From: a virus
Taxonomy: Duplodnaviria; Caudoviricetes
Length of the DNA stretch: 64,000 nucleotides
Strand: one strand, 5' to 3'
IMG/VR virus record: IMGVR_UViG_3300031993_000016
Shown: positions 3,759 to 20,051 of the stretch, in pieces
Numbering within the stretch: position 1 is the first letter of the stretch
How the letters are laid out: every line of letters starts with the position of its first letter
Position numbers and translations under genes: made by a program
The notes under the pieces: model-generated
The model's input: the letters and a program-made list of their open reading frames with translations, nothing else
Databases searched by the model: none
Told to the model about the DNA's origin: nothing

Positions 3759-5576
3759 CTATACACGGAATTCATCAGGTCTATCTATCACTACAACATA
3801 TTCAGAAGACTTTCTAAAATGCGATTTCGACTTCAATTCTTCTACCACATTATCTTTATACTTCTCAGTTTTATCTACAACAAATACATATCGCTTACAC
3901 TTATAATGCTCTAATACAATATCAATCCATTCGTCACAAGTGTGAAATTCAGTTTCATTGTTATAGATTTCTTTTTTGTTATATGGTGGGCAGGTAAGTA
4001 GGCACGAGTATTCATAGTAGCTATCTAAAATGTTTTCAACAGTGACAGAAGCATTTGTTAAGCTGAAAAATTTTAATATCTCATGACTTTCAGATACTGC
4101 AGTTGAATTTAAATCTCGGCCTACATATTGTTTACCTGTAGAGCATACACCTAACAACCGTCCAGAAAATCCGGAAAACGGATCACAGATACAATCAAAA
4201 TCATTTAAGTATTTCAATGTTAAGTATTTAGCTAATATAGGATTAAACACAGACACTTTAGGTGCAATCTTAGATATGTTGAAACCGCTAAGTACTTTAG
4301 ATGGATCAACATCATTTTGATATATTAATCGGTTAGCTATACACTTCTTAAGCAATTCATCAGATTGCCATGCTTCATATGGAGATACATGACCATCGAC
4401 TTTACAGTGATAAATTGACGGATGAAACTTACGAATAACCGATATCCCCAGTTTGCAATACGGATTGTAAGATGTTGATGTATAGTCACACAGATGTGCA
4501 TAATCATAATAGAGTCGATCATCTGTGTAATTAGGGTACGGAAATTCAACAGACCTACACCAACTAAATATATGAGAATCATAATCAAATAAGTTATTAT
4601 CTATTTGCTTCAACATGTAAATCAAGTTAGATAATCCAGATTCAAAATCAGATTCTATTAACAACACAAATATATGATCATCTGGCACAAGTGAAACGCG
4701 AACATCATCATAATCATCTCGAACCTTCTCGCCACCAGGATCACTTATGTAAGAATGCCAATATATTCCATCACAGTCTATGAGCATCTTATATTTTGGT
4801 AAATACACATCAAATTCGTGCGAGCATGTACCATCGGTTAGCACATGATGCTCAACACAGTCAATGTTGAACTCTTGTAATATTGAATGTAATCGAGATT
4901 CCAGTTTGCTTAAGTTTTTAGAATTCCGTGATTGTTTAGCACGAAGCTCAGGGCACTGCATAGCATAAGGATAACCTGTGCGACTTATATTAGTTTGCAT
5001 AGTTTGCGCAATACATGCTGAACTTGTAACTGTATCGCGTATCTTGTCTCGTACTTCTGGTACCTGAGCAATATTAGTATATTTCGTCCCGTATTTCATT
5101 TGGATTGTTTTTATTTTAGCTGGTTCATTAGATATCGCTTTATCATGCAATAGCTGTCGAACAGAACTAGCTTGTGAAGCAACTTTAACACCATATTTTG
5201 CTAAACAGGTTTGTTCTCGGAGCTTATTTGAACATGCTTGAGAACAACATCTAATAGGGTCATATTCTAATTTTATTTCAACAGGAGTGCCGCATATAGG
5301 ACACGGATTAAAATGTTTATTGTCACAATAGCGTTGCATGCTACTTCTAGGTGCAAATAATTTACCGCATAGTTCACATTTCTTTAAAGTTTTAGCAATA
5401 GTTTGTTTACGAAGCTGTGCTGCACATTTTTTAGAACAGCATTGTTTAGGATGTTTATAATTCCATATGAAGCTAGATTGACATACAATACATCTTCGAT
5501 AATGAACATTGTTGCAATAAGCAGCAGTACCAACTCCTTCAAATGGTTGACCGCATTCTTTACAATATTTTATCAC
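3759..5576 (-). CDS. Zn-ribbon/KYGV-repeat protein with a Vsr-like (EDxHD/DUF559-type) endonuclease fused to a C-terminal DNA methyltransferase-like domain
   Basis: Several CxxC pairs; TCLAKYGV repeat; HEFDVYLPKYKMLIDCDGIYWH nuclease motif; DPFSGFSG (SAM-binding motif I) and TCPPY (motif IV variant). Confidence 0.75.
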   Translation of the reverse strand: MIKYCKECGQPFEGVGTAAYCNNVHYRRCIVCQSSFIWNYKHPKQCCSKKCAAQLRKQTIAKTLKKCELCGKLFAPRSSMQRYCDNKHFNPCPICGTPVEIKLEYDPIRCCSQACSNKLREQTCLAKYGVKVASQASSVRQLLHDKAISNEPAKIKTIQMKYGTKYTNIAQVPEVRDKIRDTVTSSACIAQTMQTNISRTGYPYAMQCPELRAKQSRNSKNLSKLESRLHSILQEFNIDCVEHHVLTDGTCSHEFDVYLPKYKMLIDCDGIYWHSYISDPGGEKVRDDYDDVRVSLVPDDHIFVLLIESDFESGLSNLIYMLKQIDNNLFDYDSHIFSWCRSVEFPYPNYTDDRLYYDYAHLCDYTSTSYNPYCKLGISVIRKFHPSIYHCKVDGHVSPYEAWQSDELLKKCIANRLIYQNDVDPSKVLSGFNISKIAPKVSVFNPILAKYLTLKYLNDFDCICDPFSGFSGRLLGVCSTGKQYVGRDLNSTAVSESHEILKFFSLTNASVTVENILDSYYEYSCLLTCPPYNKKEIYNNETEFHTCDEWIDIVLEHYKCKRYVFVVDKTEKYKDNVVEELKSKSHFRKSSEYVVVIDRPDEFRV

Positions 5577-5642
5577 TATAAATACCTCCTAACTAGACAC
5601 AAAATTATGTCACTAACTTTACATATATTTAACGATTTTATA

Positions 5643-5678
5643 GAAAAATGTCGACCACAATTGACTGCGGTCGACATA
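5643..5678 (-). terminator. Intrinsic terminator after the tail tube gene
   Basis: ATGTCGACC...GGTCGACAT hairpin followed by a T-run on the minus strand. Confidence 0.8.
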
Positions 5679-5707
5679 TAATGAATCAACAACTTACTTT
5701 AAGAATT

Positions 5708-6936
5708 TTAGACTCTGAATTCATCTGGTCGCATGTAAATCGCTCTTGAAATTACAAGTGTTGTCTGGACTTTTACAAGGCCGCCTTCCTGATTCATGGT
5801 ACCGTTACTAAGACCTTGAATCCAGACACCTGGACACTTTATTACATCTCTTGCATTACCTTGACCATCATATTTGATAAAATACGCCTGCCTCATGTAC
5901 TCAGACGGCAGACCCATTTTTTCTGTCACCGGATTGTATACCTGCTTGCGCCATGCACGTAAACTCTCAAGAACGTTTGGCTCACAATAGCAGTTAAGTG
6001 TCCAATCAACATCTGCAAATGAAACTTTTCCAGGGAACTTGATGATTCCATTTCCATAATGTACTGTGATTGAGTCTTGGTCTTCTTTGATCTCACCTAC
6101 TTCGTCTGTTGAGAGTGTAAGTAGGTCACTGAATTCTGTTGGGGAACTTCCGTCCATATTGTATCTAATATCTTCAAATAGATTCGTGACATCTATCCGG
6201 CCTGTTACGGCTCCTCTTATTTTCATAAGATGTAGAGACTATATCATCACCTCATGTTGTTATGGGGGCTCGGCGCTACCACACGATTTTGTGGACTATA
6301 GTCGTTGAACCTTCCTCAGATCTTAAGGCTTGGCTGCTGATTGTCTAATCCAACTACTTTTTAAGCATTCACATCTATCTTTCTAGATTATGTTGTAGCA
6401 AGTTGGCTCTAAAGATTTTCCAGCAATTCACCGAGTTATTCGAAACATATTACTATGTTAAGGGACTAGATAAGTTAATCCTGATCTCGAAGTTATTTTG
6501 TGTCAATGGGACGAAGTTGTCGATACCTAACCAAGTTTGTTACGATGGCTCGCTACACCATCTCTCTTGCTTTCACAAGACGTTCAGACTATATTATCAT
6601 CTTAATATTAAGATGCTCACCCCTTCGAAGACGCTTGTCCTCTACTCCTTTCGGATAGTCGTTGAACCTTCCCTTACAGGCTTGGCTGCTGATTGCCTAT
6701 TGTATACGTGTTTAGGATTTAACCTTGCACTATCTAGATAAATTTTTTCTACTTTCGTCACCATCACGTTTACATCTAAATTAGATATTGCGTTGTGGTT
6801 TATCTAGCTTTAAGGTGTTCCAGCAATTCGATGAGTCTTTTATCATACAGATTTCTCTATACGCATACCTTAGATCACTTTAGCACTTTAAAGTGTTAAA
6901 AATATGGTTTGTGCCCATATAAAGTGGACTAAACAT
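5708..6936 (-). CDS. Tail tube protein (T4 gp19-like), spliced from exons 6936-6902, 6531-6478 and 6164-5708; 181 aa
   Basis: The joined exons give 546 nt in frame (MFSPLYMGTNHMLGIDNFVPLTQNNFEIRIYNMDG...). AGGAGG RBS; tube-like segments KFPGKVSFADVDWTL and LRAWRKQVYNP. Confidence 0.85.
6165..6477 (-). ncRNA. Group I intron 2 of the tail tube gene (313 nt, no ORF)
   Basis: Core elements GAATTGCTGGAA, AATCAGCAGCC, GTTCAACGACTA and GATATAGTC; 5' exon ends in U (GGAU pairs with GUCC, giving the U-G pair); intron ends in G; splicing restores the frame. Confidence 0.9.
6532..6901 (-). ncRNA. Group I intron 1 of the tail tube gene (370 nt, no ORF)
   Basis: Same P/Q/R/S elements. Internal guide AUCUAAGGUAUG pairs with 5' exon CAUAU (U-G at the splice site) and 3' exon UUAGGU; terminal G. 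Confidence 0.9.
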
Positions 6937-7049
6937 ATTTTTTACCTCCTTGTGTATGTTTTATTTATACAAACATATATAAGGATGATGATAAAAATTT
7001 AATTTTGCATCGGTCATATATTTATTTACAAAGAAAAATTAAATATCAC

Positions 7050-7078
7050 TTGACAGTTTTAGAAAACAGCCATATAAT
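7050..7078 (+). promoter_or_regulatory. Consensus sigma70/sigmaA promoter
   Basis: TTGACA-N17-TATAAT exactly, upstream of a GGAGG RBS and ATG at 7104. Confidence 0.9.
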
Positions 7079-7103
7079 TATTATAGAGAGGAGGTGTAGT
7101 TAC

Positions 7104-8509
7104 ATGAAGTTTTGCACAAATTGCGGCGCACAGCTACCTGAATCAAATCGTCAGGACGATGTCGATCGTGTGCACAGAAAGCAGCAGTATCTAAACGAGA
7201 AGCTACATGTTTAGCACGATATGGTGCTAGAAATGTGATGCATATTGATAGGTTTGTTAAGAAAATCCAGCATACATTCTTAGAACGATACAATACAAAA
7301 TGTGCTATGGATGTACCTGAATTCAAACAAAAACAAGAAGATACTATGATAAAACTATATGATGTAAAATCGTATGTGCTTACAGATGAATATATGCAAA
7401 ATGCACATTTTAGAGAATCTAATACGCAGAAAGCTATAGCATCTAAATTGAATCAGATAAATATTCAAACAGGGTCAGAACTTTTGCTAGATGATAAAAA
7501 ATTTGATATCCCTATCTTAGGCACAAACATATTACTGGAAATAGATCCGTCGTACACGCATAACATAATCGGGAATCACTGGAATAAGAAAGGGTTAGAG
7601 GAAACCTATCATCTAAATAAAACAGCAATTGCAGCATCGCATGGCTATCACTGTTTACACGTATTTGATTGGGATAACATAGACGAAATAACTAGTAGAT
7701 TATGCATAACACAGAAAATAGCAGCAAGAAAATGTAAGGTGATCTTCCACAATGAACCAACTCCTACAGTCAATTTAATATATGAAGATAAAGTCATTCT
7801 ATCTGTACAAGCTCAGTTATCAAATATAGCAGCATACGAATATGAATTAACAATGATGTTTAAACCAAACATACAAGTGGTTGGTGGTGTAAGTCGAGCT
7901 ATCAAGCATATCATGCAACATCTACACACAAATAAAATATTTATAAAGTGTGATTTGTCAAAATTTTCTGGTGAATGCTATGAGAAAGCTGGTATGAAAG
8001 CAGTTGCAATAATACCTCCACAAGAACATTGGTCTAAGAGCATGTATGAAATGCAAATAGATGATAAAATAAATGCTGAAAAACTAATACAAGATCATTG
8101 GTTACCGGTTTACGACTGCGGATATGTAATATATAGTTATGTTGATGGTTATCCTACACAAACATCTCAACCTTCATTAAAAGAATACTATCAAACTATT
8201 GCGAACAGCATATCTAAATCAAAAGAAAGATTATGTGACTTTTGTCATCAGCCATTTATACCAGCATCTAACAGACAACGATACTGTAAACGTGTGCATA
8301 AGAGAATATGCCCTGTATGCGGAAAAGAATATGTAGAAGATAATGTTGAAAATTTGAAACGACCTCCAGTTGCGTGTTCATATGCATGCAGGGTGAAGAA
8401 AACTCAATCCACTAGTCTTGAACGATATGGATGCACCGCACCTGGTAATTCTACGCAAGCCAGAGAAAAAGCTAGAGAAACACGGCGAAACAAGCACATC
8501 TACAACTAG
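7104..8509 (+). pseudogene. Frameshifted Zn-finger/KYG-repeat Vsr-like endonuclease with a degenerate GNAT-like domain
   Basis: MKFCTNCG... continues as GRCRSCAQKAAVSKREATCLARYGARNV into ORF 7235-8509 only after a 1-nt shift near 7150; EIDPSYTHN and WLPVYDCG motifs. Confidence 0.7.
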
Positions 8510-8531
8510 TCTATGTGATATAACACAAAAT

Positions 8532-8572
8532 CACCTCATATGTAGTCTTGTTATAAGATTACATATGAGGTA
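8532..8572. terminator. Hairpin between convergent genes
   Basis: ACCTCATATGTAGTCTT...AAGATTACATATGAGGT inverted repeat. Confidence 0.65.
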
Positions 8573-8615
8573 ATATGTTAATGTTATGTGTTATATTTAT
8601 TTACGATGAGTTTTG

Positions 8616-9185
8616 TTATCTACGATGTAATGACTGCTGATATTTTTCAGCGCATTCACCTATGTAAGCAACTGCATCATCATAGTTAGTGAATATTTCA
8701 TCATTTATTCGTATATCTCTAACTTTCCATTTAACTCCAAGCTTTCTTGTAGTTGATTCACGGCGTTTTCGAATCCATTGTAATACATCTTCATCTTCAG
8801 TAGGTGAATGATTTGATATACGCAGGAATATCACGAATTTCATTGTACCTAGTACGTTTTGTTCTAGATCAGCTAATGTAAAGTATTTTGAAGTTTCGCT
8901 TGTCTTGCTTTCTGACTTTTCTAGAATAATTAGATTGTGATCTTCTAACTCTAAAATAGCTTCCGCAATGAATGCATGATAGTCTGCAAGTGTTTGAGCA
9001 TCTATTTTATCTCTATCGGCAGATATCATAGACGCAGCAACCTGTTCAACATCACGATCTAGTTCAACAATTATATCCATATTTAATTCATCGCTACGTA
9101 ACAATTTCTTCACAATCCTCCACCTCGCATCATATTTATCTTGAATACTATCAGTTTTGACTGATGGGTGTGTTATTGCATACAC
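8616..9185 (-). CDS. Hypothetical protein
   Basis: 189-aa ORF; start codon uncertain. Confidence 0.65.
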   Translation of the reverse strand: MYAITHPSVKTDSIQDKYDARWRIVKKLLRSDELNMDIIVELDRDVEQVAASMISADRDKIDAQTLADYHAFIAEAILELEDHNLIILEKSESKTSETSKYFTLADLEQNVLGTMKFVIFLRISNHSPTEDEDVLQWIRKRRESTTRKLGVKWKVRDIRINDEIFTNYDDAVAYIGECAEKYQQSLHRR

Positions 9186-9195
9186 TATAACGATA

Positions 9196-9342
9196 TTACT
9201 TCTCAGATTTCTTAGCTTGTTGCTGTGATATCTTTATAGCTTGTCCTTGTTTAGTAGCTTTCTTTTTAGCATCTTTACCGTAATAGATTTTACCAGTTTT
9301 GCCGTATTGATAACCGCCTGATTTTGTTTCATGTACTGGCAT
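9196..9342 (-). CDS. Small basic hypothetical protein (MPVHETKSGGYQYG...)
   Basis: GGAGGTG RBS before ATG at 9342. Confidence 0.65.
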   Translation of the reverse strand: MPVHETKSGGYQYGKTGKIYYGKDAKKKATKQGQAIKISQQQAKKSEK

Positions 9343-9347
9343 ATGAA

Positions 9348-9710
9348 TCACCTCCAAGCTACATTGAAATTCTTCTCTATGCCATTCCATAGATATGTGA
9401 GATGGCCATCTGGATATAAGCTGATATATGTAGAAGTAATCGGATTATTATCTTCTTGTGTTTGATAATAGCATCCATCGCCTTCATGTTCATACATCTT
9501 TGTGTATTCAACCCAAGTATTTGGATAGAGTTCGATTTCTATTGTTTGTGGATATTCTGCGTAATCGCAAAAGATATCATCAGTAGCTTCGATAGAATAA
9601 TTAGTTGCAGATTTGAAAGCATTAATCAAGTTCTTGGCTGCGATGCTACCATTTTGTATATTGTTCCTAGACTCATATAGAGCTTCAGGAACGTCTATGA
9701 TTACTTTCAT
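9348..9710 (-). CDS. Hypothetical protein
   Basis: GGAGGT RBS before ATG at 9710. Confidence 0.65.
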   Translation of the reverse strand: MKVIIDVPEALYESRNNIQNGSIAAKNLINAFKSATNYSIEATDDIFCDYAEYPQTIEIELYPNTWVEYTKMYEHEGDGCYYQTQEDNNPITSTYISLYPDGHLTYLWNGIEKNFNVAWR

Positions 9711-9739
9711 ATAATTACCTCCGTTTTTATGATTCCTTT

Positions 9740-9795
9740 TTGACGCACCCATCGGCTAAAGCCAATGGGATTCTTGCTTCACCGTGCGGTTGCAC
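9740..9795 (-). mobile_element. Orphan IS200/IS605-family right-end remnant
   Basis: GAAGCAAGAATCCCATTGGCTTTAGCCGATGGGTGCGTCAA: a subterminal hairpin ending in TCAA, typical of tnpB-element right ends. Confidence 0.65.
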
Positions 9796-10205
9796 TATTC
9801 AGTAATTACTTTTGTAATTGCTTCTTCATATGAAATATTGTCCCAATATATTTTACCTGATTTATTTTCTACAGTTATTTTTGTGTTTCTAACAAATGGA
9901 CAAGTAAGTAAGAAATCTATGATTGGTTTGTACCAATTGAAATCTGCTGAAGTGATTCTGAATGTAAGCTTATTGTCCCACCATAATCTCACTTTGCACC
10001 AGTTTTGATTATATGTGTATAATATAGCTTGTTTTAATTCTTCAGCAGGGTTAGCTCGATATTGTTTGCAATTCCACTTGTCTAAATTAGAACCATATTC
10101 TGAAACTATATCTACAACGCTATCAAATTCAAATGATTCAGACGGATGCGCATATACATCTATGCAGTTGCCGGATCTATCTAATAACCATGCTCTGCTG
10201 AACAT
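9795..10205 (-). CDS. Hypothetical protein
   Basis: AGGAGG RBS; class M motif at 10231-10240. Confidence 0.75.
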   Translation of the reverse strand: MFSRAWLLDRSGNCIDVYAHPSESFEFDSVVDIVSEYGSNLDKWNCKQYRANPAEELKQAILYTYNQNWCKVRLWWDNKLTFRITSADFNWYKPIIDFLLTCPFVRNTKITVENKSGKIYWDNISYEEAITKVITE

Positions 10206-10258
10206 ATTCTGTTACCTCCTTCATTATCTATAACGAATTTGATGTTGTAAAGTAGCTA

Positions 10259-10804
10259 TTAGAAAACTCCACCTTTATCAAAATAATCGTATTGACCTTC
10301 TTGAATACTTGTGCTATATATACGACATACACCTGGGTCACCAACTTGTAAGCAAGTGTTATATATGTACCAAGATTCAGCTAGCGGGTCAACATCTACT
10401 TCTTCAAAAGTTTCTTGGCTCCTTGGATCATCAACATATTTCATAAACGCATCGTTAACTGCATTTATAATCTGCATATCAGAACTGTATTGAGATGCAT
10501 CTATACCAAAAACTTCCTCTATATTCCAAGCCCACGCACCAAAATTGTTTATACTCCCGTTTCTAGGAGCTTCACCTACATAATAACCTTGATATGTAGG
10601 CCTATTACCGTTAGGAAATACTTCAACATAGAAAACATCCATATTACCTATTGATTTTCCTAAGACTTCAACTATAGCTTCGCTAGGATTATCACCACCA
10701 TACCACGTACTATATCCACTTTCATATCGTTCTCGATCGCATGTTACATAATCTTTGTTATCATCTGTATCTGTTACAGCAGATGATTTGATGTATCTTT
10801 TCAT
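10259..10804 (-). CDS. Hypothetical protein with MKRYIKSS N-terminus
   Basis: ORF with RBS and the shared N-terminal motif. Confidence 0.75.
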   Translation of the reverse strand: MKRYIKSSAVTDTDDNKDYVTCDRERYESGYSTWYGGDNPSEAIVEVLGKSIGNMDVFYVEVFPNGNRPTYQGYYVGEAPRNGSINNFGAWAWNIEEVFGIDASQYSSDMQIINAVNDAFMKYVDDPRSQETFEEVDVDPLAESWYIYNTCLQVGDPGVCRIYSTSIQEGQYDYFDKGGVF

Positions 10805-10819
10805 ACATATGTCTCCTTT

Positions 10820-11149
10820 CTATATCATATAATGACCACGTCTCTGCAAACTAGCTTTAGCTGCACGTTTTACACGACCCCAATCATGTGCTGCAAGATC
10901 TTCAAGAACTTCTACAGGTGTATTTGGATTATCAGCAACGCTGCGTCGCACATCTGGATAGTAATCATTTGCAAGTTTACTAAGGACGTCTGCAGGTGTA
11001 CCTGGATTTTGTGCAACCATTTGTCTTACAGCTACATGTTCATGACGTGCAAGTTGTGCAAGAATATCTGGAGCAGTTGTTTCATCTCTTGCCAGGTCAC
11101 GTATCTTATCTATACCTGTTAGGGTAGAAGATCTAATGTATCGTTTCAT
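10820..11149 (-). CDS. LRV/HEAT-like repeat protein with MKRYIRSS N-terminus
   Basis: About 24-aa repeats of the form VRxxVAxNPxTPxxVLxxLA. Confidence 0.8.
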   Translation of the reverse strand: MKRYIRSSTLTGIDKIRDLARDETTAPDILAQLARHEHVAVRQMVAQNPGTPADVLSKLANDYYPDVRRSVADNPNTPVEVLEDLAAHDWGRVKRAAKASLQRRGHYMI

Positions 11150-11372
11150 GCACTACCTCCTTGGACTGAGCTAATCTATCTACTATTGCATCATATGCTC
11201 TTCTTAAATCATCTTCAGACATTGTTACATAATATCTTACATAATATCCTTCATCTGGATCACTGTCGTCTTCAGAAGCACCATACTGGTCTAGAATAGA
11301 TTCTATAAGTTCATATTCATGAGATTCTTCAATCAACATATCTATCGCATCCATGTATTCTTCACGTGTCAT
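11133..11372 (-). CDS. Acidic hypothetical protein
   Basis: AGGAGG RBS. Confidence 0.7.
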   Translation of the reverse strand: MTREEYMDAIDMLIEESHEYELIESILDQYGASEDDSDPDEGYYVRYYVTMSEDDLRRAYDAIVDRLAQSKEVVHETIH

Positions 11373-11382
11373 ATTACACCTC

Positions 11383-11592
11383 CTACAAATATATTCGCTT
11401 ATCTCTACGAAGAGTACTTGTCATCTTCTCTACATCTTCGAGTACAGATGCAAGTCCCATATCAGTTAAATCATTTGCATGATTTGCAAACTCAGTTGCA
11501 TACTCTATAAGTTCTTGAAGTTCAATATCTAGATCATCTGCCATTCTAGATCTTGATCTAGCATCATTTGATGCTGTGATTATCTTTTTCAT
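11383..11592 (-). CDS. Hypothetical protein with MKKIITAS N-terminus
   Basis: AAGGAG RBS; class L motif at about 11625-11636. Confidence 0.7.
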   Translation of the reverse strand: MKKIITASNDARSRSRMADDLDIELQELIEYATEFANHANDLTDMGLASVLEDVEKMTSTLRRDKRIYL

Positions 11593-11646
11593 AAACTATC
11601 TCCTTATCTATCACCTTATATTTATTTACAAAGGTGGTGATTATTA

Positions 11647-12291
11647 TTGTACAATAACGAAAAACGCATTGAAACTAATCTACTTAAATATAAGGTTCAA
11701 AATGTAGCCCAGCTTCCAGAAATTCAAGAGAAGCGACGAAAGACATTTGAGACAAAGAGAACTACTATTCTATTCTATCAAGAGCCTCGTGTTAATGTGA
11801 TTGATGGACATGATTTAACTGTATATCGTCTCAATAAAGATGTAGCAGACTGTTGGCTCAATAAGTATCATCCATTTAAAGCTCCAAAAGGTAATGTGTT
11901 ATGTTTAGGGTTAGTTAAAGATGACATTATATATTGTATAATGACATTTAAGAAATCACGTGATTCTCAATATGTAGCAGAGTTATCTCGCCTTTGGATG
12001 CTTCCAACCTATCAAATTATAGGTGGATACGATATTCTTTCAAATGAAGCGTCTCAATTAGGCCTGTACAATATTGTTGCTTATGTCAATATGTCATTTG
12101 AGAATTATAAAGATTATGAGTCGATTGGTATGAAGTATGTTAGAGATGTGCAGAGAACGAAGTGGTGGGTTAGAGGTGATGCGAAGATATCAGATGCTTC
12201 TCGTCGTCAATCAAAATTAAAACAGGAAGATATGACCGCTTCTGGATATCTTCCTGTATATGATTGTGGTATTAGGGTTTATGTGGTGTGA
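11647..12291 (+). CDS. Stand-alone Mom-like GNAT-domain paralog lacking the nuclease domain
   Basis: One KY(K/G)V repeat, then AELSRLW...IIGG...IVAYVN...GYLPVYDCG as in the C-termini of 13419-14942 and 14954-16852. Confidence 0.65.
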   Translation: MYNNEKRIETNLLKYKVQNVAQLPEIQEKRRKTFETKRTTILFYQEPRVNVIDGHDLTVYRLNKDVADCWLNKYHPFKAPKGNVLCLGLVKDDIIYCIMTFKKSRDSQYVAELSRLWMLPTYQIIGGYDILSNEASQLGLYNIVAYVNMSFENYKDYESIGMKYVRDVQRTKWWVRGDAKISDASRRQSKLKQEDMTASGYLPVYDCGIRVYVV

Positions 12292-12312
12292 TCATTGATT
12301 CAAAGGCTGTGT

Positions 12313-12636
12313 TTACCTAACGAATCCAATCTCAAGTTCTCTGCATTTCTGCAGGAAAAGATCACGAAGTTCTTCAGTACCTTCATAATATTGAGCGATT
12401 TCAATTAATTCATCATCACCCCAATCATCAATATTGAATGTTATATTATTGACCATATGCTCAAATGTTTCATTATCTAAAGGTCCACCAATATCAAACT
12501 TATACCCCTCAAGAATGTCAGTAACTACATCTTCAAGTTCATTGACATTATAAACAGCATCCTCGCCTTTCACATACTTCTTATTTGTTCCGCATGATGC
12601 CTTTACACTCTGTGGATATACTTTAAATCTTTTCAT
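12313..12636 (-). CDS. Hypothetical protein (MKRFKVYPQSVKAS)
   Basis: GAGGA RBS. Confidence 0.7.
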   Translation of the reverse strand: MKRFKVYPQSVKASCGTNKKYVKGEDAVYNVNELEDVVTDILEGYKFDIGGPLDNETFEHMVNNITFNIDDWGDDELIEIAQYYEGTEELRDLFLQKCRELEIGFVR

Positions 12637-12720
12637 TGTTTGCGTTCCTCCTATATAATAATATGTAATATACCATGATCAACAGCTTCATTGATCTATA
12701 AATATAAGTTGAGCTAGAAT

Positions 12721-13014
12721 TTAAACTAACTCCATTATTTGCATCATTGTATGGGCCATCCTCTGATGTTTAGCTGAAACTTTTTCAGGTACTTTATCTT
12801 CAGGATATGCAGTGTTTAATGCATAAGTTATATCGTCTTCATCAATCGAACGAGCGTATTTTAAAGATGACTCTACAAGATCACATTTATAATAGCTCCA
12901 ATGATATTTGTCTCGGAGTATCATATATATTGCGCCGCGAATTTCAGCAACATTACTTGGGTCGTCTACTTTGTAGATGTTATTGTCTATTGTTGATTTG
13001 ATAAATCTTTTCAT
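12721..13014 (-). CDS. Hypothetical protein with MKRFIKST N-terminus
   Basis: AAGGAG RBS; class L motif at 13103-13114. Confidence 0.7.
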   Translation of the reverse strand: MKRFIKSTIDNNIYKVDDPSNVAEIRGAIYMILRDKYHWSYYKCDLVESSLKYARSIDEDDITYALNTAYPEDKVPEKVSAKHQRMAHTMMQIMELV

Positions 13015-13105
13015 TGTGCGTTTACTCTCCTTGTCTATTAGATTCTTCTACTTATATGATCTCTGTATCTTCTCTTTATACATCTGACGAACTTAATCAT
13101 TTATA

Positions 13106-13313
13106 TTAAAGGTTGTTATTAAGTTGATATTCCCATCTTATTACTCCGGAATCAAATACTTGAACATATCCGTGAGACTCCATGACTCCTCGCTCTGTAT
13201 AGTTAGCGTCATGTAAATCATCAAATAAGTTTGGTAAATTAGATTTTTGACATTAATCTACGTGATGATTTAGTTTCAAATTCATCACCGCATATTGCAC
13301 AGATTCGTTTCAT
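13106..13313 (-). pseudogene. Internally deleted third tandem paralog of the nuclease-GNAT genes
   Basis: N-terminal MKRICAICGDEFETKSSRR is joined out of frame to CQKSNLPNLF...HGYVQVFDSGVIRWEY, which matches the C-terminus of the 632-aa ORF. Confidence 0.8.
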
Positions 13314-13321
13314 TATAGATA

Positions 13322-13400
13322 CCTCCATGAAAGTTTATATTGAAAGGAAGTAATCTAGAATTCATGGCTTCTAGAAACACTGGCCGGTGCTGTCCTTCCT
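13322..13400 (-). promoter_or_regulatory. Structured leader element, copy A (SD-masking pseudoknot)
   Basis: ACCGGCCAGTGTT-TCTAGAA-GCCATGAA-TTCTAGA-TTAC; loop CCATGAA is complementary to TTCATGG overlapping GGAGG. Confidence 0.7.
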
Positions 13401-13418
13401 ACAATATCTGTAACGATT

Positions 13419-14942
13419 TTAGGTTAAACTACCATATACATACACCGCTTGTCCGCAATCATAAACTGGTAACCACCCGTTATCTAACATGAGCTGCTCA
13501 TTAGAAGTACCTTTACCATAATTGGCACCAAATAACTGATCATAACCACGCTGATTAAGCAGATTCTGTGTGATCTTTTTATCATCTTTTGACCATATTT
13601 TATTAGGTTCAGCAATGTATGTCAATTGCATACCAATTGCTTCATATACATCCCCACGAAACTTTGCTAAATCGCAATATGATATAACAGAATCATTCAG
13701 ATGATCTGATCGAAAATGTTTGAATAGTTTAGACGCGCCTCCTATGATTCTATACCTTGAACGCGTACATAATCTAAGTAATTCAAAATTATACTTATTA
13801 TTATATCTAGGTTTTCCAAATGTCATCAATTGCATAAGCTGATTGTCATAATATAACCCATAACAAATCTCTTGCCCTTTACAACTACCCTGAATATGAA
13901 ATTGCGCTGTAAATTTATTAGCATCAGATTTAGATACCTGTCGAATTTCACAATTTCTTGCATAAATAGATGTCTTAGGTATTAGCATATTAAGAATATC
14001 ATCCCAATTATCCCAATCAAATACATGAATACATCTGTACCCATTATCTAAAGCAAGTTTAGTCTTAGTTAAATGATAATTAGGATCTAATCCATCAGAA
14101 TCCCAATGATTACCAAAAGAATTATGCGTATATGTAGGATCAATTTCAATGAGTATGTCACCTGATTTAAGATCATAAGAACATTTATCTATGTGAAATT
14201 CAAATTCAAATTCAATGTTATTCGCTTCAAGCACGTCTCCGAAGCGTTTATTTATATTAGAAATAACAGATGAAGCATTTCGGCATTCGTCTCGCATACA
14301 ATTATAAGGTACACCATATTTATCTAAGCAAACTTGGGTAATCTTTTGCTTTACAATAGGATTTTGCGATGGATTAGAATAACCCGTTTCACGTAGCCGA
14401 TTTGATACAATCTTTGAGCGAATTTCAGGTACAGCTAACACGTTTTCGTAGCCGTATCTTTCTAAATTGGTTTGTTTGGCCTTTTCATGTATTGTATCAC
14501 ATTGAAGCGGGACTCTTACACCATAATGAGATTCAACCGAATCCTGTTGTTTAGAATGAATTTCAGATACTTGCATTGGGTTATCTACACCATACGTATC
14601 TTGAAAATGTTGTTTTATTTTTGATTGAATCAAGACAGATTTACTAGGATTATCAACACCATAGCGTTCTATACAAGTAGCTCTTATCCTTGCTTTAACT
14701 TCTTGCAACTGATTTGGATTATCTACACCATATTTCAATTGCATAGTTTTCTTACGAGATAGATTACCTAATTGTTGCCCACATTTCAATGAACAAGTTT
14801 TAGATGTGTATGGAGGTTTTCGTATAAAAGTTTCTCCACATACACAACAAACAGAAGTGTGCTCAGATTTACACACTTCTGCTCGTTTACTTTTAGCAAC
14901 AAATTGTTTACCACACAATTTACATATCTTAATATATTCCAT
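13419..14942 (-). CDS. Zn-finger/KYGV-repeat Vsr-like endonuclease with C-terminal Mom-like GNAT domain (507 aa)
   Basis: Start MEYIKICKLCGK after AGGAGG; about 7 YG(V/Y)xN repeats; EIDPTYTHN; ELLRLC, IIGGASKLF, ISYCD, VYDCG. Confidence 0.8.
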   Translation of the reverse strand: MEYIKICKLCGKQFVAKSKRAEVCKSEHTSVCCVCGETFIRKPPYTSKTCSLKCGQQLGNLSRKKTMQLKYGVDNPNQLQEVKARIRATCIERYGVDNPSKSVLIQSKIKQHFQDTYGVDNPMQVSEIHSKQQDSVESHYGVRVPLQCDTIHEKAKQTNLERYGYENVLAVPEIRSKIVSNRLRETGYSNPSQNPIVKQKITQVCLDKYGVPYNCMRDECRNASSVISNINKRFGDVLEANNIEFEFEFHIDKCSYDLKSGDILIEIDPTYTHNSFGNHWDSDGLDPNYHLTKTKLALDNGYRCIHVFDWDNWDDILNMLIPKTSIYARNCEIRQVSKSDANKFTAQFHIQGSCKGQEICYGLYYDNQLMQLMTFGKPRYNNKYNFELLRLCTRSRYRIIGGASKLFKHFRSDHLNDSVISYCDLAKFRGDVYEAIGMQLTYIAEPNKIWSKDDKKITQNLLNQRGYDQLFGANYGKGTSNEQLMLDNGWLPVYDCGQAVYVYGSLT

Positions 14943-14949
14943 ATTGATA

Positions 14950-15014
14950 CCTCCTACATAGGTATAATAAGAGAGTAATCTAGATGATGTAGGCATCTAG
15001 AAACACTGGCCGGT
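14950..15014 (-). promoter_or_regulatory. Structured leader element, copy B (SD-masking pseudoknot)
   Basis: ACCGGCCAGTGTT-TCTAGAT-GCCTACATC-ATCTAGA-TTAC; loop CCTACAT is complementary to ATGTAGG overlapping GGAGG. Confidence 0.7.
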
Positions 15015-16852
15015 TGATTAGAGGAAGGCGTGTATTCCCATCGGATAACTCCTGAGTCAAATACACGACCATATCCATGAGCTGTCATTATTTCAACTTC
15101 AGTATTGTGTTCGACATCAATAGTATCATCGCGAAGCAGCTTCTTAAGATTAGATTTCTGACATGTTACTCGATTATAATAGCATTCAGAATTCGGATCA
15201 ACCCATACGTATCCCGGATCTGATCGATGTATTTCAACAAAGCCTAAAATCTTGTAAAGATTTCCAGAAGTAGTGGCAATATCGGAAAAAGAAACGATTT
15301 TATCAGGATACCAATGTCTACAGAAGTAGCTGAATAGTTTGCTTGCACCTCCTACAACATTGTAATTTAACTTAGAACAAAATCTAGACAACTCCCAGCT
15401 ATCTTCATTGTTGATCCGACCACTTAAATTTCGCATTTTACCAAATGTCATGAGAGAAACTAATTCATCGTTATCATAAAGACCTAACCGTATGGAACAC
15501 GTAGTAGGACCTTGTCTATGATTGATGCGAAGAAACTCTCGAGCATCTGACCAACTAACTTCTCTTAGGTGCAAGTTCCGTGCAAATAGTTTACGAGTTG
15601 TGTTACCTAATGCATTTCGTAACATGGAAACCATGATATCTTTATGATTAACCCAATCGTATCCAAATACATGTATAAGTCGAATACCTGCTTGCTGTGC
15701 CAAATCTGACTTATCCTTATGATAAGATTTAGGTACAATATTACCTTCATGCATGAATGCAATATCGGAATTGTGCGTCCATGTAGGATTACACTCAATT
15801 CCAAGCTTATAATCCGGCAAGTAAATATCAATTTCATAAGGGCTTATGATAGATCTAGAATGCGGTATAATAACTGCATCAGGTACGGTTGTATGTATGA
15901 TGTTGGTGATATCTTGCTCCATATTAGATATGTTACATTGTACCAAATCATGTAAACAGTATTTTACTATGTAATATGATATAGTTGTGTCACAGACTCC
16001 AGTAGATTCGGATAGTTCCTTATAAGTTGGTTTATGATCAAATTGAGTTAGTATGTAATTTTTAGGATCTGATTTAAATTGTTCGTAGTAGTTATATCTA
16101 TCGGGATTTACTACAGTTGTTTTCAGATACTCCGGTGAAAATATATAAGCAGGGCCTCCATATTTTTTAAAGTTAGTTTCAGTGCGTTGTTTGATGATTT
16201 CATCAGCTTGTGCTGCATATTCTACACCATAACGCTTTAAGCATGTAGCTTTCACTTTAGCTTGAATATCTTCATTGGATAGCGCATTCTCATGACCATA
16301 ACGTTCTAAATTAGTGGATTGTATATGTTGTCGTAACTCCTCAGATTGCATAGGTGATGCAACTCCATATTTATCTAGCATACCTTGCACCATTCGAGCC
16401 CGTATTTCCGGATCTTTAGAATAATGATCTACACCATAAAGTTCTAAACTATGTTGTTTTATTCTTTCTTGAATCTCAGCACTTTGAGATAAATTATCTA
16501 CACCATATCGAGATTTTACAGTCTGATGAACCTTTTCTTTAATATCACTGCGCTGTAGTGGATTAGCTGCTCCATATCGTTCTAAATTAGTAGCTTCTCG
16601 TTTCTGTTGAGCTTGTAATTTAGCTTCAGCAGATCTATTTTGATGTCCCTCGGAAATAACAATCTTTCGGCATTCTGAACATGTTCGAGGCCCATATTTC
16701 ATATAATTTACATAAGATTCTTTTACTAACAACGGTTGGCCGCATCGAGCGCATGGTCTATAATGATCATCTCCACAAGACTGTGCTTTTGCAGAATGCG
16801 CCATAAAAACTTTACCACACCATACACATTTTCTTTCACCATAGTTTCGCAT
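14954..16852 (-). CDS. Zn-finger/KYGV-repeat Vsr-like endonuclease with C-terminal Mom-like GNAT domain
   Basis: CxxC pairs; about 7 (R/K)YG repeats; YEIDIYLPDYKLGIECNPTWTHN; WELSRFC, VVGGASKLF, VSFSD, VFDSG. Confidence 0.8.
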   Translation of the reverse strand: MRNYGERKCVWCGKVFMAHSAKAQSCGDDHYRPCARCGQPLLVKESYVNYMKYGPRTCSECRKIVISEGHQNRSAEAKLQAQQKREATNLERYGAANPLQRSDIKEKVHQTVKSRYGVDNLSQSAEIQERIKQHSLELYGVDHYSKDPEIRARMVQGMLDKYGVASPMQSEELRQHIQSTNLERYGHENALSNEDIQAKVKATCLKRYGVEYAAQADEIIKQRTETNFKKYGGPAYIFSPEYLKTTVVNPDRYNYYEQFKSDPKNYILTQFDHKPTYKELSESTGVCDTTISYYIVKYCLHDLVQCNISNMEQDITNIIHTTVPDAVIIPHSRSIISPYEIDIYLPDYKLGIECNPTWTHNSDIAFMHEGNIVPKSYHKDKSDLAQQAGIRLIHVFGYDWVNHKDIMVSMLRNALGNTTRKLFARNLHLREVSWSDAREFLRINHRQGPTTCSIRLGLYDNDELVSLMTFGKMRNLSGRINNEDSWELSRFCSKLNYNVVGGASKLFSYFCRHWYPDKIVSFSDIATTSGNLYKILGFVEIHRSDPGYVWVDPNSECYYNRVTCQKSNLKKLLRDDTIDVEHNTEVEIMTAHGYGRVFDSGVIRWEYTPSSNQPASVSRCLHHLDYSLIIPM

Positions 16853-16911
16853 AGATAACCTCCTTTAATAAATAAAAGGTTTGTTGATTTGATTACTATA
16901 ACGAATTTAAC

Positions 16912-16944
16912 AAAAAACAAGACCCAGATTGCTCTGAGTCTTGT
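16912..16944 (-). terminator. Intrinsic terminator after the sheath gene
   Basis: CAAGACTCAGA/TCTGGGTCTTG hairpin plus T-run. Confidence 0.75.
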
Positions 16945-16970
16945 GTTGAAACAAATTGTATCAAGTATGA

Positions 16971-19151
16971 TTAGCTTAATGAACTAAGATCAATACCTGC
17001 ACCGGCAGGTAATGCAATAAGATCTACGTAAATATCGTTTATAACTCCATTTACTAGGAGCCAAATTTTTCCAATAACAGTGTTAGCATTAACATGATCT
17101 AATTCATCAATGTCCGCTGACATCTGAACACGATAGCCATCGATTGCACCAACATTCTTCATTGTATCAAGAAGTGGTGTCACACCTGCATAAAACTTAT
17201 TATAAGCCTGACCATTATTATATTGGAATGTGATGCTTATTCCGCATTTGTAAACTACATCTTCTACTGCATTTACTAAGAAACGAGTTGAAAGATTTGC
17301 AAGTGCCTGATAAGTTGCAGGAGGTACTTCAAATAATGTTGAGTTACCCCAGATGTTTGTGCCGAGGTCTGGGATTGTTGTAAGTACGTTTACAGATACT
17401 CCGTCAAGTTTCTGCCATTTATCAAGTAATTTCTTTGGTACTGTGTAATCAAGTTTTCCAATTCTTACATTGTGTTGTCTATTTGTTGGAAGTGCCCATT
17501 CATACTGTGTAGGCTGATTGAGGATCTGTGCTCTTTGTATCATAAGTGCTGCGAATGAAGGAGATGCTTCACTCATTCTGCTTGTACCTACATACTGGAA
17601 TTGTGTCCATGGTGCAAAGAATCCACAATGTGTGTGGAAGAGTGATCCATTTACATCAAGTGCTGCGTTTACAGGTGTTACACGAGCTAACATCTGTACA
17701 TAACCTGCACGATCTGGATTAGCTTCATCCTCAATGTGAACGAACTTTCTTTCTACCATATGCGGTACATCAATGTAACCTGTTGCACATCTGCTGTAGT
17801 ATGCTACGTCCATTATCTTAAGGTTAAGCGGAGAGACTGGAATTGGACAAGATCCTGATGATGGTGTAGGATAATATGTACTGATGATTGTAGAATTATC
17901 TGTATACATGAAATAATCTTGATCATCCCAACCTGGGCTTATTACACGATTCGGGTTGTAAGAAAGTTTGTCTTTGAGAAGATCAAATACACCACCTACA
18001 GGCTGTCCATTTGAATCAACATAAGTACCGCCTACAAGATGTGTAAATAACCATTCTCTATAGTATAATGAACATTTTGTATCGTCATCAAGTGCAGCTT
18101 GTACAGTTGAATCAGCAACAGCGGTTGGATACGTATAAGTAGCTGAATTTGCAGCTACTTGGTAAGCTTCTGCCCAATCATATCTAGGTTTTGCAATGTT
18201 TTCAAATGACATTGTTCCGCTAGTATATGTTGTGATATAATCTGTACCAGCAGTAGCTGTTGTACTTCCAAGTATAGCAGCTGTACCAGTTGATGGAACT
18301 TCATCCCACTTTGTAGCGTCCCAGGCACCTGTTGTATCATCAGCCTTGCATTTATATACGTTACATTCATGATATACAAGTGCATCTTTTGCATATGTAG
18401 CAGTTGCATCAAATGCTGTAACCCCTGCAGTAGATACTACAATGTCCGCAGAAGTTGAAGACTCATCAACTGTACCAGTGATATTTGTAATATCCCAGAA
18501 CTTAGATTCAACTTCTTTGTAGTAAAGAATACTGTCTGTTGAATTAGCAGCATTGAATACAAGTGTCTTTGACTCAGCTGCAGTTTTTACACCACTAGAA
18601 TCTACAATATAAGTAATAATGTTCCAATAGAACTTAGTTGTTTGTGACTCCCTATCATAATAAGCAACTTTGCTAACTACAATCTGGAGATTATTTCCAA
18701 ATGTTCCAGGATACTTTGCTCTGAAACTGATAGTAGCTGCACTATCTGTATTATTCTTATACTGATACTGCGTAAAGCTGCCCTGTGCATAAGTTCCAGG
18801 GCACAGACGACATACAAGTATATCATAACCAGCAGTGAGTAATGTAGTTGCTATCTGATATGAATAATCTTTTGCAAGTCTATAACCTGCAGCAGGTCCA
18901 CGATAAGTAGATACAAATGCATCAAGTCCTGCCTGTGTAGCAGGAAATCGCTGCCAAGCGGTTTGCTCAAGCATATCGCTTACAGCATCACCATATCCAG
19001 CCCCACTTGGCTGAATACCAGAAGCAGCAGTTGGATCAAAGTATCCAGGACCCCAGCAAGATGTAATTGGAAGTGCTACGGTAGCATATCCACCATCTCC
19101 AACAGCCCAAGAATAATTTGTGCTGATTTCATTTATGACAATTTTAGCCAT
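16971..19151 (-). CDS. Tail sheath protein
   Basis: MAKIVINEI N-terminus; WGP; AKYPGTFGNNL; C-terminal IWGNSTL...LSTRFLVNAVEDVV sheath domain. Confidence 0.9.
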   Translation of the reverse strand: MAKIVINEISTNYSWAVGDGGYATVALPITSCWGPGYFDPTAASGIQPSGAGYGDAVSDMLEQTAWQRFPATQAGLDAFVSTYRGPAAGYRLAKDYSYQIATTLLTAGYDILVCRLCPGTYAQGSFTQYQYKNNTDSAATISFRAKYPGTFGNNLQIVVSKVAYYDRESQTTKFYWNIITYIVDSSGVKTAAESKTLVFNAANSTDSILYYKEVESKFWDITNITGTVDESSTSADIVVSTAGVTAFDATATYAKDALVYHECNVYKCKADDTTGAWDATKWDEVPSTGTAAILGSTTATAGTDYITTYTSGTMSFENIAKPRYDWAEAYQVAANSATYTYPTAVADSTVQAALDDDTKCSLYYREWLFTHLVGGTYVDSNGQPVGGVFDLLKDKLSYNPNRVISPGWDDQDYFMYTDNSTIISTYYPTPSSGSCPIPVSPLNLKIMDVAYYSRCATGYIDVPHMVERKFVHIEDEANPDRAGYVQMLARVTPVNAALDVNGSLFHTHCGFFAPWTQFQYVGTSRMSEASPSFAALMIQRAQILNQPTQYEWALPTNRQHNVRIGKLDYTVPKKLLDKWQKLDGVSVNVLTTIPDLGTNIWGNSTLFEVPPATYQALANLSTRFLVNAVEDVVYKCGISITFQYNNGQAYNKFYAGVTPLLDTMKNVGAIDGYRVQMSADIDELDHVNANTVIGKIWLLVNGVINDIYVDLIALPAGAGIDLSSLS

Positions 19152-19407
19152 TTACGGATTCCTCCTTTTCTTCATTTTTTGTTGATTTATTTTGAGACTC
19201 TGATTCAGATTTCTTAGATTCAACTGAAGGTTTAGTTGATGATTTTGTAGTAGACTTAGGCGCTTGCTTAGGAGCAGGTGCAATAGGTCTTTCGCAACGT
19301 TGGAAATCCTTATCATTTATGTATCCAGGTACTTCTTTGATTTCACCTGGATTGAAGGTTACGCCGTAAAAGGTTTTTGTGGCTATTGACATGTTTTTAT
19401 AAAACAT
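19144..19407 (-). CDS. Small hypothetical protein with low-complexity K/S/E tail
   Basis: AGGAGG RBS; class L motif at about 19436-19449; overlaps the sheath start. Confidence 0.7.
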   Translation of the reverse strand: MFYKNMSIATKTFYGVTFNPGEIKEVPGYINDKDFQRCERPIAPAPKQAPKSTTKSSTKPSVESKKSESESQNKSTKNEEKEESVNG

Positions 19408-19448
19408 ATTTGTACTCTACCTCCTCATTTGATAACATTATTAAAGGT

Positions 19449-20051
19449 TCATTCTTGTATATCTACTTCGTGCGCCATTCGTTTTAATTTAGCTGGTGTA
19501 TAAGTTACTAAAACGGCACCATCAATATGTAGTTGAATTGTAGCTGAATAGAGCTTGCCCTCTTGTAGATAATTAGATGAAGTAGTTTGACGTTCTATAT
19601 TTGTAGATGGATCAATTCTAACACCAAATCGAATCTTACGCTTAGATTCATAAGGTATTTTAAATGTTATGAAATACTGACTTGTGTATTTAAATAATAA
19701 TTCACGAATCAATTCATCAATATCTGCAGTATTTGTAGCCATACATACAAGATCATAATCTAGTTTAATTGGAAGTACTTTCTCATAGTATAATTCATTA
19801 GTTTTCTTGTCAAATACAGTGGCAACACCTTCATGTAACCTAGTGTAGTTTAGTCGATCGTTATCAACAGGTGTATCGTCATGTCGGTTAACTGCAATCA
19901 CAGGAAACTTGATTTTGTCTTCTTGTACCTGTGCTGCAATAGTTAACACACTATCAGGTGATACTATATACACTGCAGGCTCTTGTCCAGGTTCTACTGC
20001 AAAAGATTGTCGTAAATCTGCAACTATTGCGTTATCGTATGCCCAAAGCAT
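19449..20051 (-). CDS. Putative tail terminator/completion protein
   Basis: Position before the sheath; KFPVIAVNR and PIKLDYDL segments resemble gp15-like proteins. Confidence 0.55.
   Translation of the reverse strand: MLWAYDNAIVADLRQSFAVEPGQEPAVYIVSPDSVLTIAAQVQEDKIKFPVIAVNRHDDTPVDNDRLNYTRLHEGVATVFDKKTNELYYEKVLPIKLDYDLVCMATNTADIDELIRELLFKYTSQYFITFKIPYESKRKIRFGVRIDPSTNIERQTTSSNYLQEGKLYSATIQLHIDGAVLVTYTPAKLKRMAHEVDIQE

Follow-up and report, generated by a model that had tools for sequence, protein, structure and literature searches.

The window analyzed here, a 64,000-nucleotide stretch (64 kb) of the virus record IMGVR_UViG_3300031993_000016, is phage DNA of ~35% GC. The same genes are seen on contigs of 164-176 kb that bear a T4-type portal, and the owner of the locus is an uncultured T4-like phage of roughly 164-176 kb. 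Between and just beyond its tail sheath and tail tube genes lie the members of one nuclease family, most of them with an additional enzyme-like domain at the C-terminus, three of the genes being intact and at least four further pieces decayed. We hold with high confidence that this locus is a hot spot of free-standing homing endonuclease genes of the Hef type, and the count of intact and broken copies fits repeated invasion and decay. The members and their domains are as follows.

14954..16852, minus strand: P0004, intact Hef-type gene of 632 amino acids (aa), immediately following the sheath gene and its terminator
15596-15871, minus strand: Vsr-type nuclease of P0004 (aa 328-419), from domain hidden Markov models (HMMs)
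15026-15586, minus strand: Mom-like GNAT domain of P0004 (aa 423-609), from domain HMMs, the AlphaFold2 model and Foldseek
13419..14942, minus strand: P0003/P0277, second intact Hef-type gene of 507 aa, from phrog_3339 and domain HMMs
13977-14171, minus strand: nuclease of P0003 (domain HMM nucG, 5.8e-21), with the nuclease residues of its subfamily kept
13431-13964, minus strand: Mom-like GNAT domain of P0003 (GNAT domain HMM, 4.9e-56)
13106..13334, minus strand: decayed stub, a Zn-finger start and the last 48 GNAT residues in different frames, with the interior deleted
11647..12291, plus strand: P0002, relic of 214 aa in which a diverged GNAT domain (GNAT HMM, 2.7e-11) comes straight after a single repeat
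7104..8509, plus strand: P0005, frameshifted relic with a Zn-finger start, one repeat, nuclease and degenerate GNAT domain
3759..5576, minus strand: P0001, intact gene of 605 aa with Zn fingers, degenerate repeats, Vsr-type nuclease and amino-methyltransferase-like domain
4611-4913, minus strand: Vsr-type nuclease of P0001 (aa 222-322), from domain HMMs
3780-4559, minus strand: amino-methyltransferase-like domain of P0001 (aa 340-599), from domain HMMs and a structural model

The first-pass annotation had grouped six intervals as related. When each protein was searched by tblastn against the whole window, all six proved to be mutually linked, with expectation values (E) from 1e-9 to 7e-54, and no extra family copy was found beyond the listed intervals anywhere in the 64 kb. 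Specifically, P0003 matched P0004 at 6.7e-54, the region 7190-8140 at 8e-45 and the region 11800-12297 at 1e-14; P0001 matched P0003 at 1e-14; and the C-terminus of P0004 (aa 564-612) matched 13112-13252 with 57% identity (1e-9). The homology of the pieces therefore stands, but their boundaries and number had to be revised. The intervals 7104-8509 and 13106-13334 are frameshifted, and the domain HMMs found no nuclease in 11647-12291. In P0005, the ATG at 7104 is out of frame with the main frame (7142-8509), and the last ~100 residues (8189-8509) are a second Zn-finger and first-repeat fragment, fused in frame, which adds a seventh piece. A perfect 12/12 sigma-70-like promoter (TTGACA, 17-nucleotide spacer, TATAAT) lies at 7050-7078 on the plus strand, just upstream of this relic start. 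The longest open reading frame (ORF) of P0003, counted from 14996, overlaps the end of P0004; the start chosen by gene callers is the ATG at 14942, and the 507-aa gene (13419-14942) is called on other contigs too.

The order of domains proposed earlier, from Zn fingers through repeats and a Vsr-like nuclease to a C-terminal domain, was borne out by profile matches to C2H2-type fingers and to DUF7487 and by the residue spacing of Vsr. In P0004, an HTH-like (helix-turn-helix) linker lies between the DUF7487 repeats and the nuclease, and the Mom-like GNAT domain ends the chain. The short motifs quoted for the C-terminal domains are likewise present, as ELSR/GGASKL/SFSD/VFDSG in P0004, ELLR/GGASKL/SYCD/VYDCG in P0003 and DPFSGFSG/CPPY in P0001. 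Pairwise identity among the family members in the window is only 22-30%. They are therefore old paralogs or products of separate invasions, and recent duplication is ruled out as their origin.

Several collections place these genes in a known family. The 'homing endonuclease' cluster phrog_3339 matched P0004 (2.3e-110) and P0003 (1.1e-78) over their full length, phrog_559 was matched too, and the repeats correspond to Pfam DUF7487 (PF24308; 3.8e-34 in P0004). By tblastn, relatives occur in 392-432 GenBank phage records, many of them annotated as Hef, Hef-like or homing endonuclease, including Campylobacter CP220-type phages, RaK2/K64-1, ViI-like phages, Acinetobacter phage 133, Bacillus AR9 and Lak megaphages. 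The repeat and nuclease part recurs in more than 6,500 metagenomic proteins. The load is unusually heavy in some 130-kb Campylobacter phages, with 10-12 separate GNAT-domain matches each, and some Acinetobacter phage records carry the annotation 'putative nuclease/acetyltransferase'. One GNAT-type relative of P0004, P0054 (714 aa), lies on a contig of 176,439 bases, equal in length to the longest contig carrying P0004, so that the genome may hold more copies outside the window. Searches for a close relative of the locus itself returned little: megablast of 13000-20000 against GenBank phages gave no match, and a sheath-based search of IMG/VR gave short fragments only.

Hef, named for a homing-like activity according to the literature that cites it, belongs to the Vsr-like 'EDxHD' family defined by I-Bth0305I (Taylor et al. 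2011). We are similarly confident that the genes in the window are Hef-family homing endonuclease genes in various states of decay. They resemble I-Bth0305I (PDB 3R3P) in nuclease motif and spacing, in being free-standing genes beside conserved phage genes, and in having a modular N-terminal DNA-binding region. I-Bth0305I, however, uses NUMOD and HTH motifs and ends at its nuclease, whereas the proteins of the window carry Zn fingers and DUF7487 repeats, and an extra enzyme-like domain of 190-260 residues follows the nuclease.

The nuclease assignment rests on residue conservation, counted over 120 relatives of P0004. E340, D342, E353, H360, Y377, H378, K381, H394 and W400 (P0004 numbering) are invariant (120/120), and position 355 is N in 114 relatives and D in the other 6. 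The distances from D342 to N355 (13) and to H360 (18) equal those of D51, H64 and H69 in Vsr. P0001 shows the motif in its classical form, FD...DCDG..WH, at identical spacing, and the profile of its family aligned by hhalign with residues 21-71 of Escherichia coli Vsr (E 9e-4), placing E25, D51, H64 and H69 in register. Some relatives also match Pfam Vsr or MTES_1575. No direct structural match was obtained for the nuclease fold; this part is confident in both structural models described below, but the lists from Foldseek and from the wide search were filled by the C-terminal domains.

Evidence for mobility comes from the surroundings of the genes, of which the relevant features are listed here.

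16971..19151, minus strand: tail sheath gene (phrog_23)
16917-16944: terminator-like hairpin after the sheath gene
6214-6487 and 6564-6883, minus strand: two group I introns in the tail tube gene (Rfam RF00028, 90.8 and 71.8 bits)
5708..6226, minus strand: 3' exon of the tail tube gene (phrog_4542)
5648-5677: terminator-like hairpin after the tube gene

Terminator-like hairpins thus stand between the sheath gene and P0004 and between the tube gene and P0001, and another follows P0001. The tube gene ends 131 bases upstream of the start of P0001. The last seven codons of P0001 (3762-3782, with the stop at 3759-3761) encode RPDEFRV, the same peptide that ends the tail tube protein (5708-5731, minus strand), and the two copies, stop included, differ at 5 synonymous positions in 24 nucleotides. 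This duplication suggests an insertion into the 3' end of the tube gene, in which one copy of the end was kept by the tube gene and the other came to be read through by the nuclease gene. It also points to the 3' end of the tube gene as a candidate target site of the P0001 element. Both group I introns of the tube gene are full-length and neither holds an ORF of its own; since Hef-family members lie on both sides of them, collaborative homing is possible.

A related phage contig (L008) carries a sheath protein 73% identical to that of the window and, in synteny, an ortholog of P0004 with 76% identity, and no other family member was found within 10 kb downstream. The relics, the single copy in this relative and the tube-end duplication beside P0001 are the behavior of mobile genes. 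Between its portal and sheath genes, the same contig has two HNH_3/NUMOD4 endonuclease genes (L008:5034-6821) that are absent from the phage of the window; different families of homing genes thus occupy different sites in close relatives.

With four of the seven pieces clearly broken, one might suppose that the whole cluster is decaying selfish DNA and that its C-terminal domains are evolutionary baggage. We regard this as very improbable: three long ORFs are intact with their motifs conserved, P0004 has the syntenic ortholog just described, and the GNAT domain is retained with 50-60% identity in >1,200 relatives (1,248 matches to the GNAT domain of P0004). Purifying selection is already apparent.

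The nature of this domain was examined with a model of P0004 residues 300-632, built on 33 relatives and covering the nuclease and GNAT parts (predicted local distance difference test score [pLDDT] 87.1; predicted template modeling score [pTM] 0.83). The top match of Foldseek in the PDB was Mom of phage Mu (8BV8, chain 8bv8_A; E 1.2e-6), followed by ordinary GNAT acetyltransferases. With the VIA aligner, Mom superposed on model residues 124-312 with Z 11.9 and a root-mean-square deviation of 3.0 over 135 residues, a score tied with those of other GNATs (Z 11-13). The suggestion that the main type of C-terminal domain has a GNAT fold related to Mom was thus supported by AlphaFold and Foldseek, and the outcome named in advance as its refutation, a domain unlike GNAT, did not occur; by homology the C-terminal domain of P0003 would be GNAT/Mom-like as well. 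Profile searches agree in part: phrog_1384 ('Mom-like') was matched at 6e-10, and 22 of the 33 relatives matched Pfam Mom (E up to 0.05; best 9.7e-12). In searches of PDB sequences, phmmer with single queries produced no useful match, and the profile of the GNAT-type family reached Zn-finger proteins only (E up to 1), with both Mom and Vsr missing from its matches.

Mom moves glycine from Gly-tRNAGly to N6 of adenine in double-stranded DNA, by a mechanism and with a structure published in 2026 (PMC13219725). Its active site is lined by H58, Y59, R111, S124, D149, R151 and Y159, and an HTH-like insertion is essential; H58, R111, S124, D149 and Y159 are needed for activity, and the mutant R151A is inactive (PMC13219725). 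We mapped these positions with hhalign and MAFFT; the hhalign comparison of the GNAT family with the single Mu Mom sequence was weak (E 0.13) and was used, together with the structural match, for residue mapping only. Equivalents of five of the residues are almost universal among the 120 relatives: H445 for H58 (120), R490 for R111 (120), S504 for S124 (119), D524 for D149 (118) and Y533 for Y159 (120). All five are kept in both P0003 and P0004. In the relics, the R111 position has become M and the H58 position T (7235-8509, P0005), and the D149 position has become N (11647-12291, P0002). In addition, the model has an insertion of ~43 residues between its last strands (249-252 and 296-299), with helices at 267-274 and 286-292, which may correspond in position to the HTH-like insertion of Mom; the alignment with Mom spans chain residues 36-223. 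Mu Mom is thereby the best structural match, with five conserved active-site equivalents, but its identity to the domains of the window is only 16-18%. It also differs in standing alone under regulation by Com, whereas the GNAT domain here is fused behind a nuclease, and its dimer residue W48 has no conserved counterpart in the Hef-type domain.

For P0001, the earlier assignment of an amino-methyltransferase fold to the C-terminal domain was upheld. The model of residues 215-605 (pLDDT 89.5) has a Rossmann methyltransferase fold, and Foldseek matched it at E ~1e-6 to PH1948, METTL5, Trm11 and RsmD/YhhF, with the Type IIG enzyme BpuSI also listed. An exhaustive HMMER search for this domain returned 1,413 cluster representatives (271 with E below 1e-30); in nearly all it forms the C-terminal end of proteins of 550-830 residues with DUF7487 repeats. 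Among the relatives, motif I, DPFSG(F/Y)SG, is present in 117/151, and D251, P252, G255, G258 and D274, which include the beta-2 Asp, are invariant or nearly so. The profile of this family matched an N4-cytosine methyltransferase weakly among PDB sequences (4e-4), and three relatives exceed the threshold of Pfam N6_N4_Mtase (PF01555), namely P0131 (32.9 bits), P0183 (35.7 bits) and P0235 (30.8 bits). Among GenBank phages the domain is essentially confined to unannotated Lak megaphages and is otherwise almost entirely metagenomic; its PHROG, phrog_12517, is of 'unknown function'.

In having a nuclease followed by an amino-methyltransferase in one chain, P0001 resembles the single-chain restriction-modification enzymes of Type IIG/IIC (BpuSI, PDB 3S1S; MmeI). 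It differs from them in lacking a target-recognition domain after the methyltransferase core, since the chain ends ~6 residues on, apart from the tube-derived tail; target recognition presumably falls to the N-terminal Zn fingers and repeats. Its Vsr-type nuclease, its CPPY motif IV and its genomic behavior as a homing gene set it apart as well.

The two kinds of C-terminal domain differ in how they are paired with nucleases. Among the 120 proteins retrieved with the repeat and nuclease part of P0003, 118 combine a nuclease of the E-x-(N/D)-P-x-x-T-H subtype with the GNAT domain, and this fixed pairing rules out frequent domain shuffling for the GNAT type. Proteins of the P0001 type mostly carry a distinct D-x-D-G-x-x-x-H subtype, and 100 of the 151 methyltransferase-type representatives have the D-x-D-G-type Vsr core. 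About 30 of the 151 (including P0234-P0265) have a different nuclease-like module, FDSSWEL...YYPDF...ELIEIKG...EAKHQC, which is PD-(D/E)xK-like by its motif (E...PDF...EIK) and which Pfam does not recognize, except for one weak TnsA-like match. P0243, a rare case, joins the methyltransferase-like module to a nuclease core of the GNAT type (50.7 bits), and in a few proteins, 271-303 residues long, this module stands by itself. Judged from these sequences, it is a true module: at least three nuclease variants carry it, and its recurrence with three nuclease cores argues for a functional coupling of nuclease and modifier. The first-pass description of the C-terminal domains as interchangeable is thus right as far as architecture goes, with one slot holding two folds, but the sequences indicate that the swap is ancient, confined to deep evolutionary time, and reflects an old split and reuse of a module; it does not indicate frequent exchange.

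As to function, the first-pass annotation had proposed either single-chain cut-and-protect elements or modification folds turned into DNA readers. The following model could account for this architecture. A long target would be located by the variable N-terminal region, with its Zn fingers and DUF7487 repeats, and cleaved by the Vsr-type domain. The conserved C-terminal domain would be a base-flipping transferase directed at exocyclic amines, of Mom type in P0003 and P0004 (glycyl-tRNA-dependent, acting on adenine N6) and dependent on S-adenosylmethionine (SAM) in P0001, and would mark the same or a nearby site in the genome of its carrier. The carrier would thus be immune, while unmarked co-infecting relatives would be cut and converted, and the protein would be to homing elements what a single-chain Type IIG enzyme is to restriction-modification systems. 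The parts of this model deserve different degrees of trust. That the C-terminal domains bind a cofactor and a flipped base we consider somewhat more probable than the contrary. To the further step, in which they protect the carrier by site-directed modification of its own target, we assign a probability of roughly 0.35 to 0.4. In its fully specified form, with Hef-type enzymes as 'cut-and-mark' elements in which the Mom type works through glycyl-tRNA, the CPPY type through SAM, and the site-directed mark confers self-immunity, the model is doubtful. The analysis shows to which family the genes belong, which folds the C-terminal domains have, that active-site residues are conserved and that there are traces of mobility; from sequences and structural models we infer that the domains may be catalytically active and may have a role in self-immunity.

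Several observations weigh against an active, self-protecting transferase. To our knowledge, self-protection is not something that homing endonucleases normally require: they lose their target through insertion or polymorphism, and cuts are repaired by phage recombination. Both intact GNAT copies miss the gathering score of Pfam Mom (PF25680), with 19.6 bits for P0004 and 15.6 for P0003 against 27.1. The position of the essential Mom residue R151 is hydrophobic in both, I in P0004 and L in P0003, and among the 120 relatives it holds R in 62 and K in 9 (71/120), so that it is lost in ~40%, with the alignment at this point uncertain by one residue. The higher conservation of the GNAT part is inflated, the relatives having been retrieved with that part as query. 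P0001, for its part, falls below the gathering score of N6_N4_Mtase (15.4 to 17 against 26.7 bits). Its motif IV reads CPPY, as in 96 of the 97 relatives in which the motif was found (SPPY once), and not the canonical (D/N/S)PP(Y/F/W); the PPY is kept, but catalysis is uncertain given this substitution. The conserved residues could serve base flipping or cofactor sensing without any transfer.

This last possibility can be stated as an explanation of its own, in which the proteins are homing endonucleases whose C-terminal domains do not transfer anything and act as base-flipping DNA clamps or as sensors of a cofactor (SAM or aminoacyl-tRNA) that position or license the nuclease. SAM plays such a part in Type IIG and Type III enzymes. 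The altered R151 and motif IV positions fit this explanation, as do the pTM of the two-domain model, which suggests a fixed nuclease-GNAT unit, and the tie of the GNAT domain to one nuclease subtype, which is expected of a structural partner. We regard it as the main rival, itself less probable than not, and by a narrow margin favor an active transferase, because hundreds of very divergent proteins hold the SAM-binding motif I and five of the six catalytic positions of Mom near-invariant, which exceeds what pure binding usually preserves, because the decayed copies lose the catalytic residues, and because unrelated nuclease cores have repeatedly acquired the methyltransferase-like module.

Most of this picture is already known, including the Hef/EDxHD membership, the Vsr link, the Mom-nuclease fusions and the cut-and-protect idea. 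Fusions of Mom and nuclease domains in jumbo phages were described by Iyer et al. (2021, Viruses 13:63; PMC7824862). They suggested that momylation shields the phage, with other DNA left open to attack by the nuclease, and reported five such enzymes in PA5oct. We found exactly five places in PA5oct that match the GNAT domain of P0004, annotated 'putative homing endonuclease'; since the numbers agree, the fusions of Iyer et al. and the genes of the window belong to the same family. Both accounts therefore concern the same protein family and share the cut-and-protect idea, but theirs is framed in terms of restriction, with 0 occurrences of the word 'homing' and no methyltransferase-type sister family (PMC7824862). 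In the accessible literature we found no explicit link of Mom-nuclease fusions to Hef/EDxHD homing genes, no residue-level agreement of these fusions with the solved Mom active site, and no publication on the methyltransferase-type (CPPY) sister family.

The proposal of Iyer et al. (PMC7824862) amounts to a weapon resembling a restriction-modification system, in which marks set widely on the phage genome by the modifier would shield it from host restriction or from its own nuclease, and host or superinfecting DNA would be degraded by the nuclease. It was made for members of the same family, and PA5oct, which is reported to have five 'momylating enzymes', shows five matching places here. The breadth of modification by Mu Mom, which affects about 20% of adenines, is in keeping with it, and so is the conservation of the P0004 ortholog, equal to that of the sheath protein (76% and 73% identity). 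We still consider it unlikely for the genes of the window: the long, variable arrays of Zn fingers and repeats imply long, specific targets; divergent copies, relics and presence/absence polymorphism beside structural genes and introns form the pattern of homing genes; and the name Hef itself, as cited literature has it, records homing-like activity.

Target polymorphism is the usual explanation of how a free-standing homing endonuclease spares the genome that carries it. A modifying domain within the enzyme itself, if confirmed, would be a different answer to the same problem and would link homing elements to restriction-modification systems. If the cut-and-mark model is true, enzymes for sequence-targeted DNA hypermodification would be found in thousands of phage genes. 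The natural Mom-like domains tethered to programmable DNA-binding arrays in the Hef family number well over a thousand and may yield tools for site-directed adenine hypermodification or methylation. If the domains are inert, the family would still be an example of enzyme folds reused as nuclease accessories.

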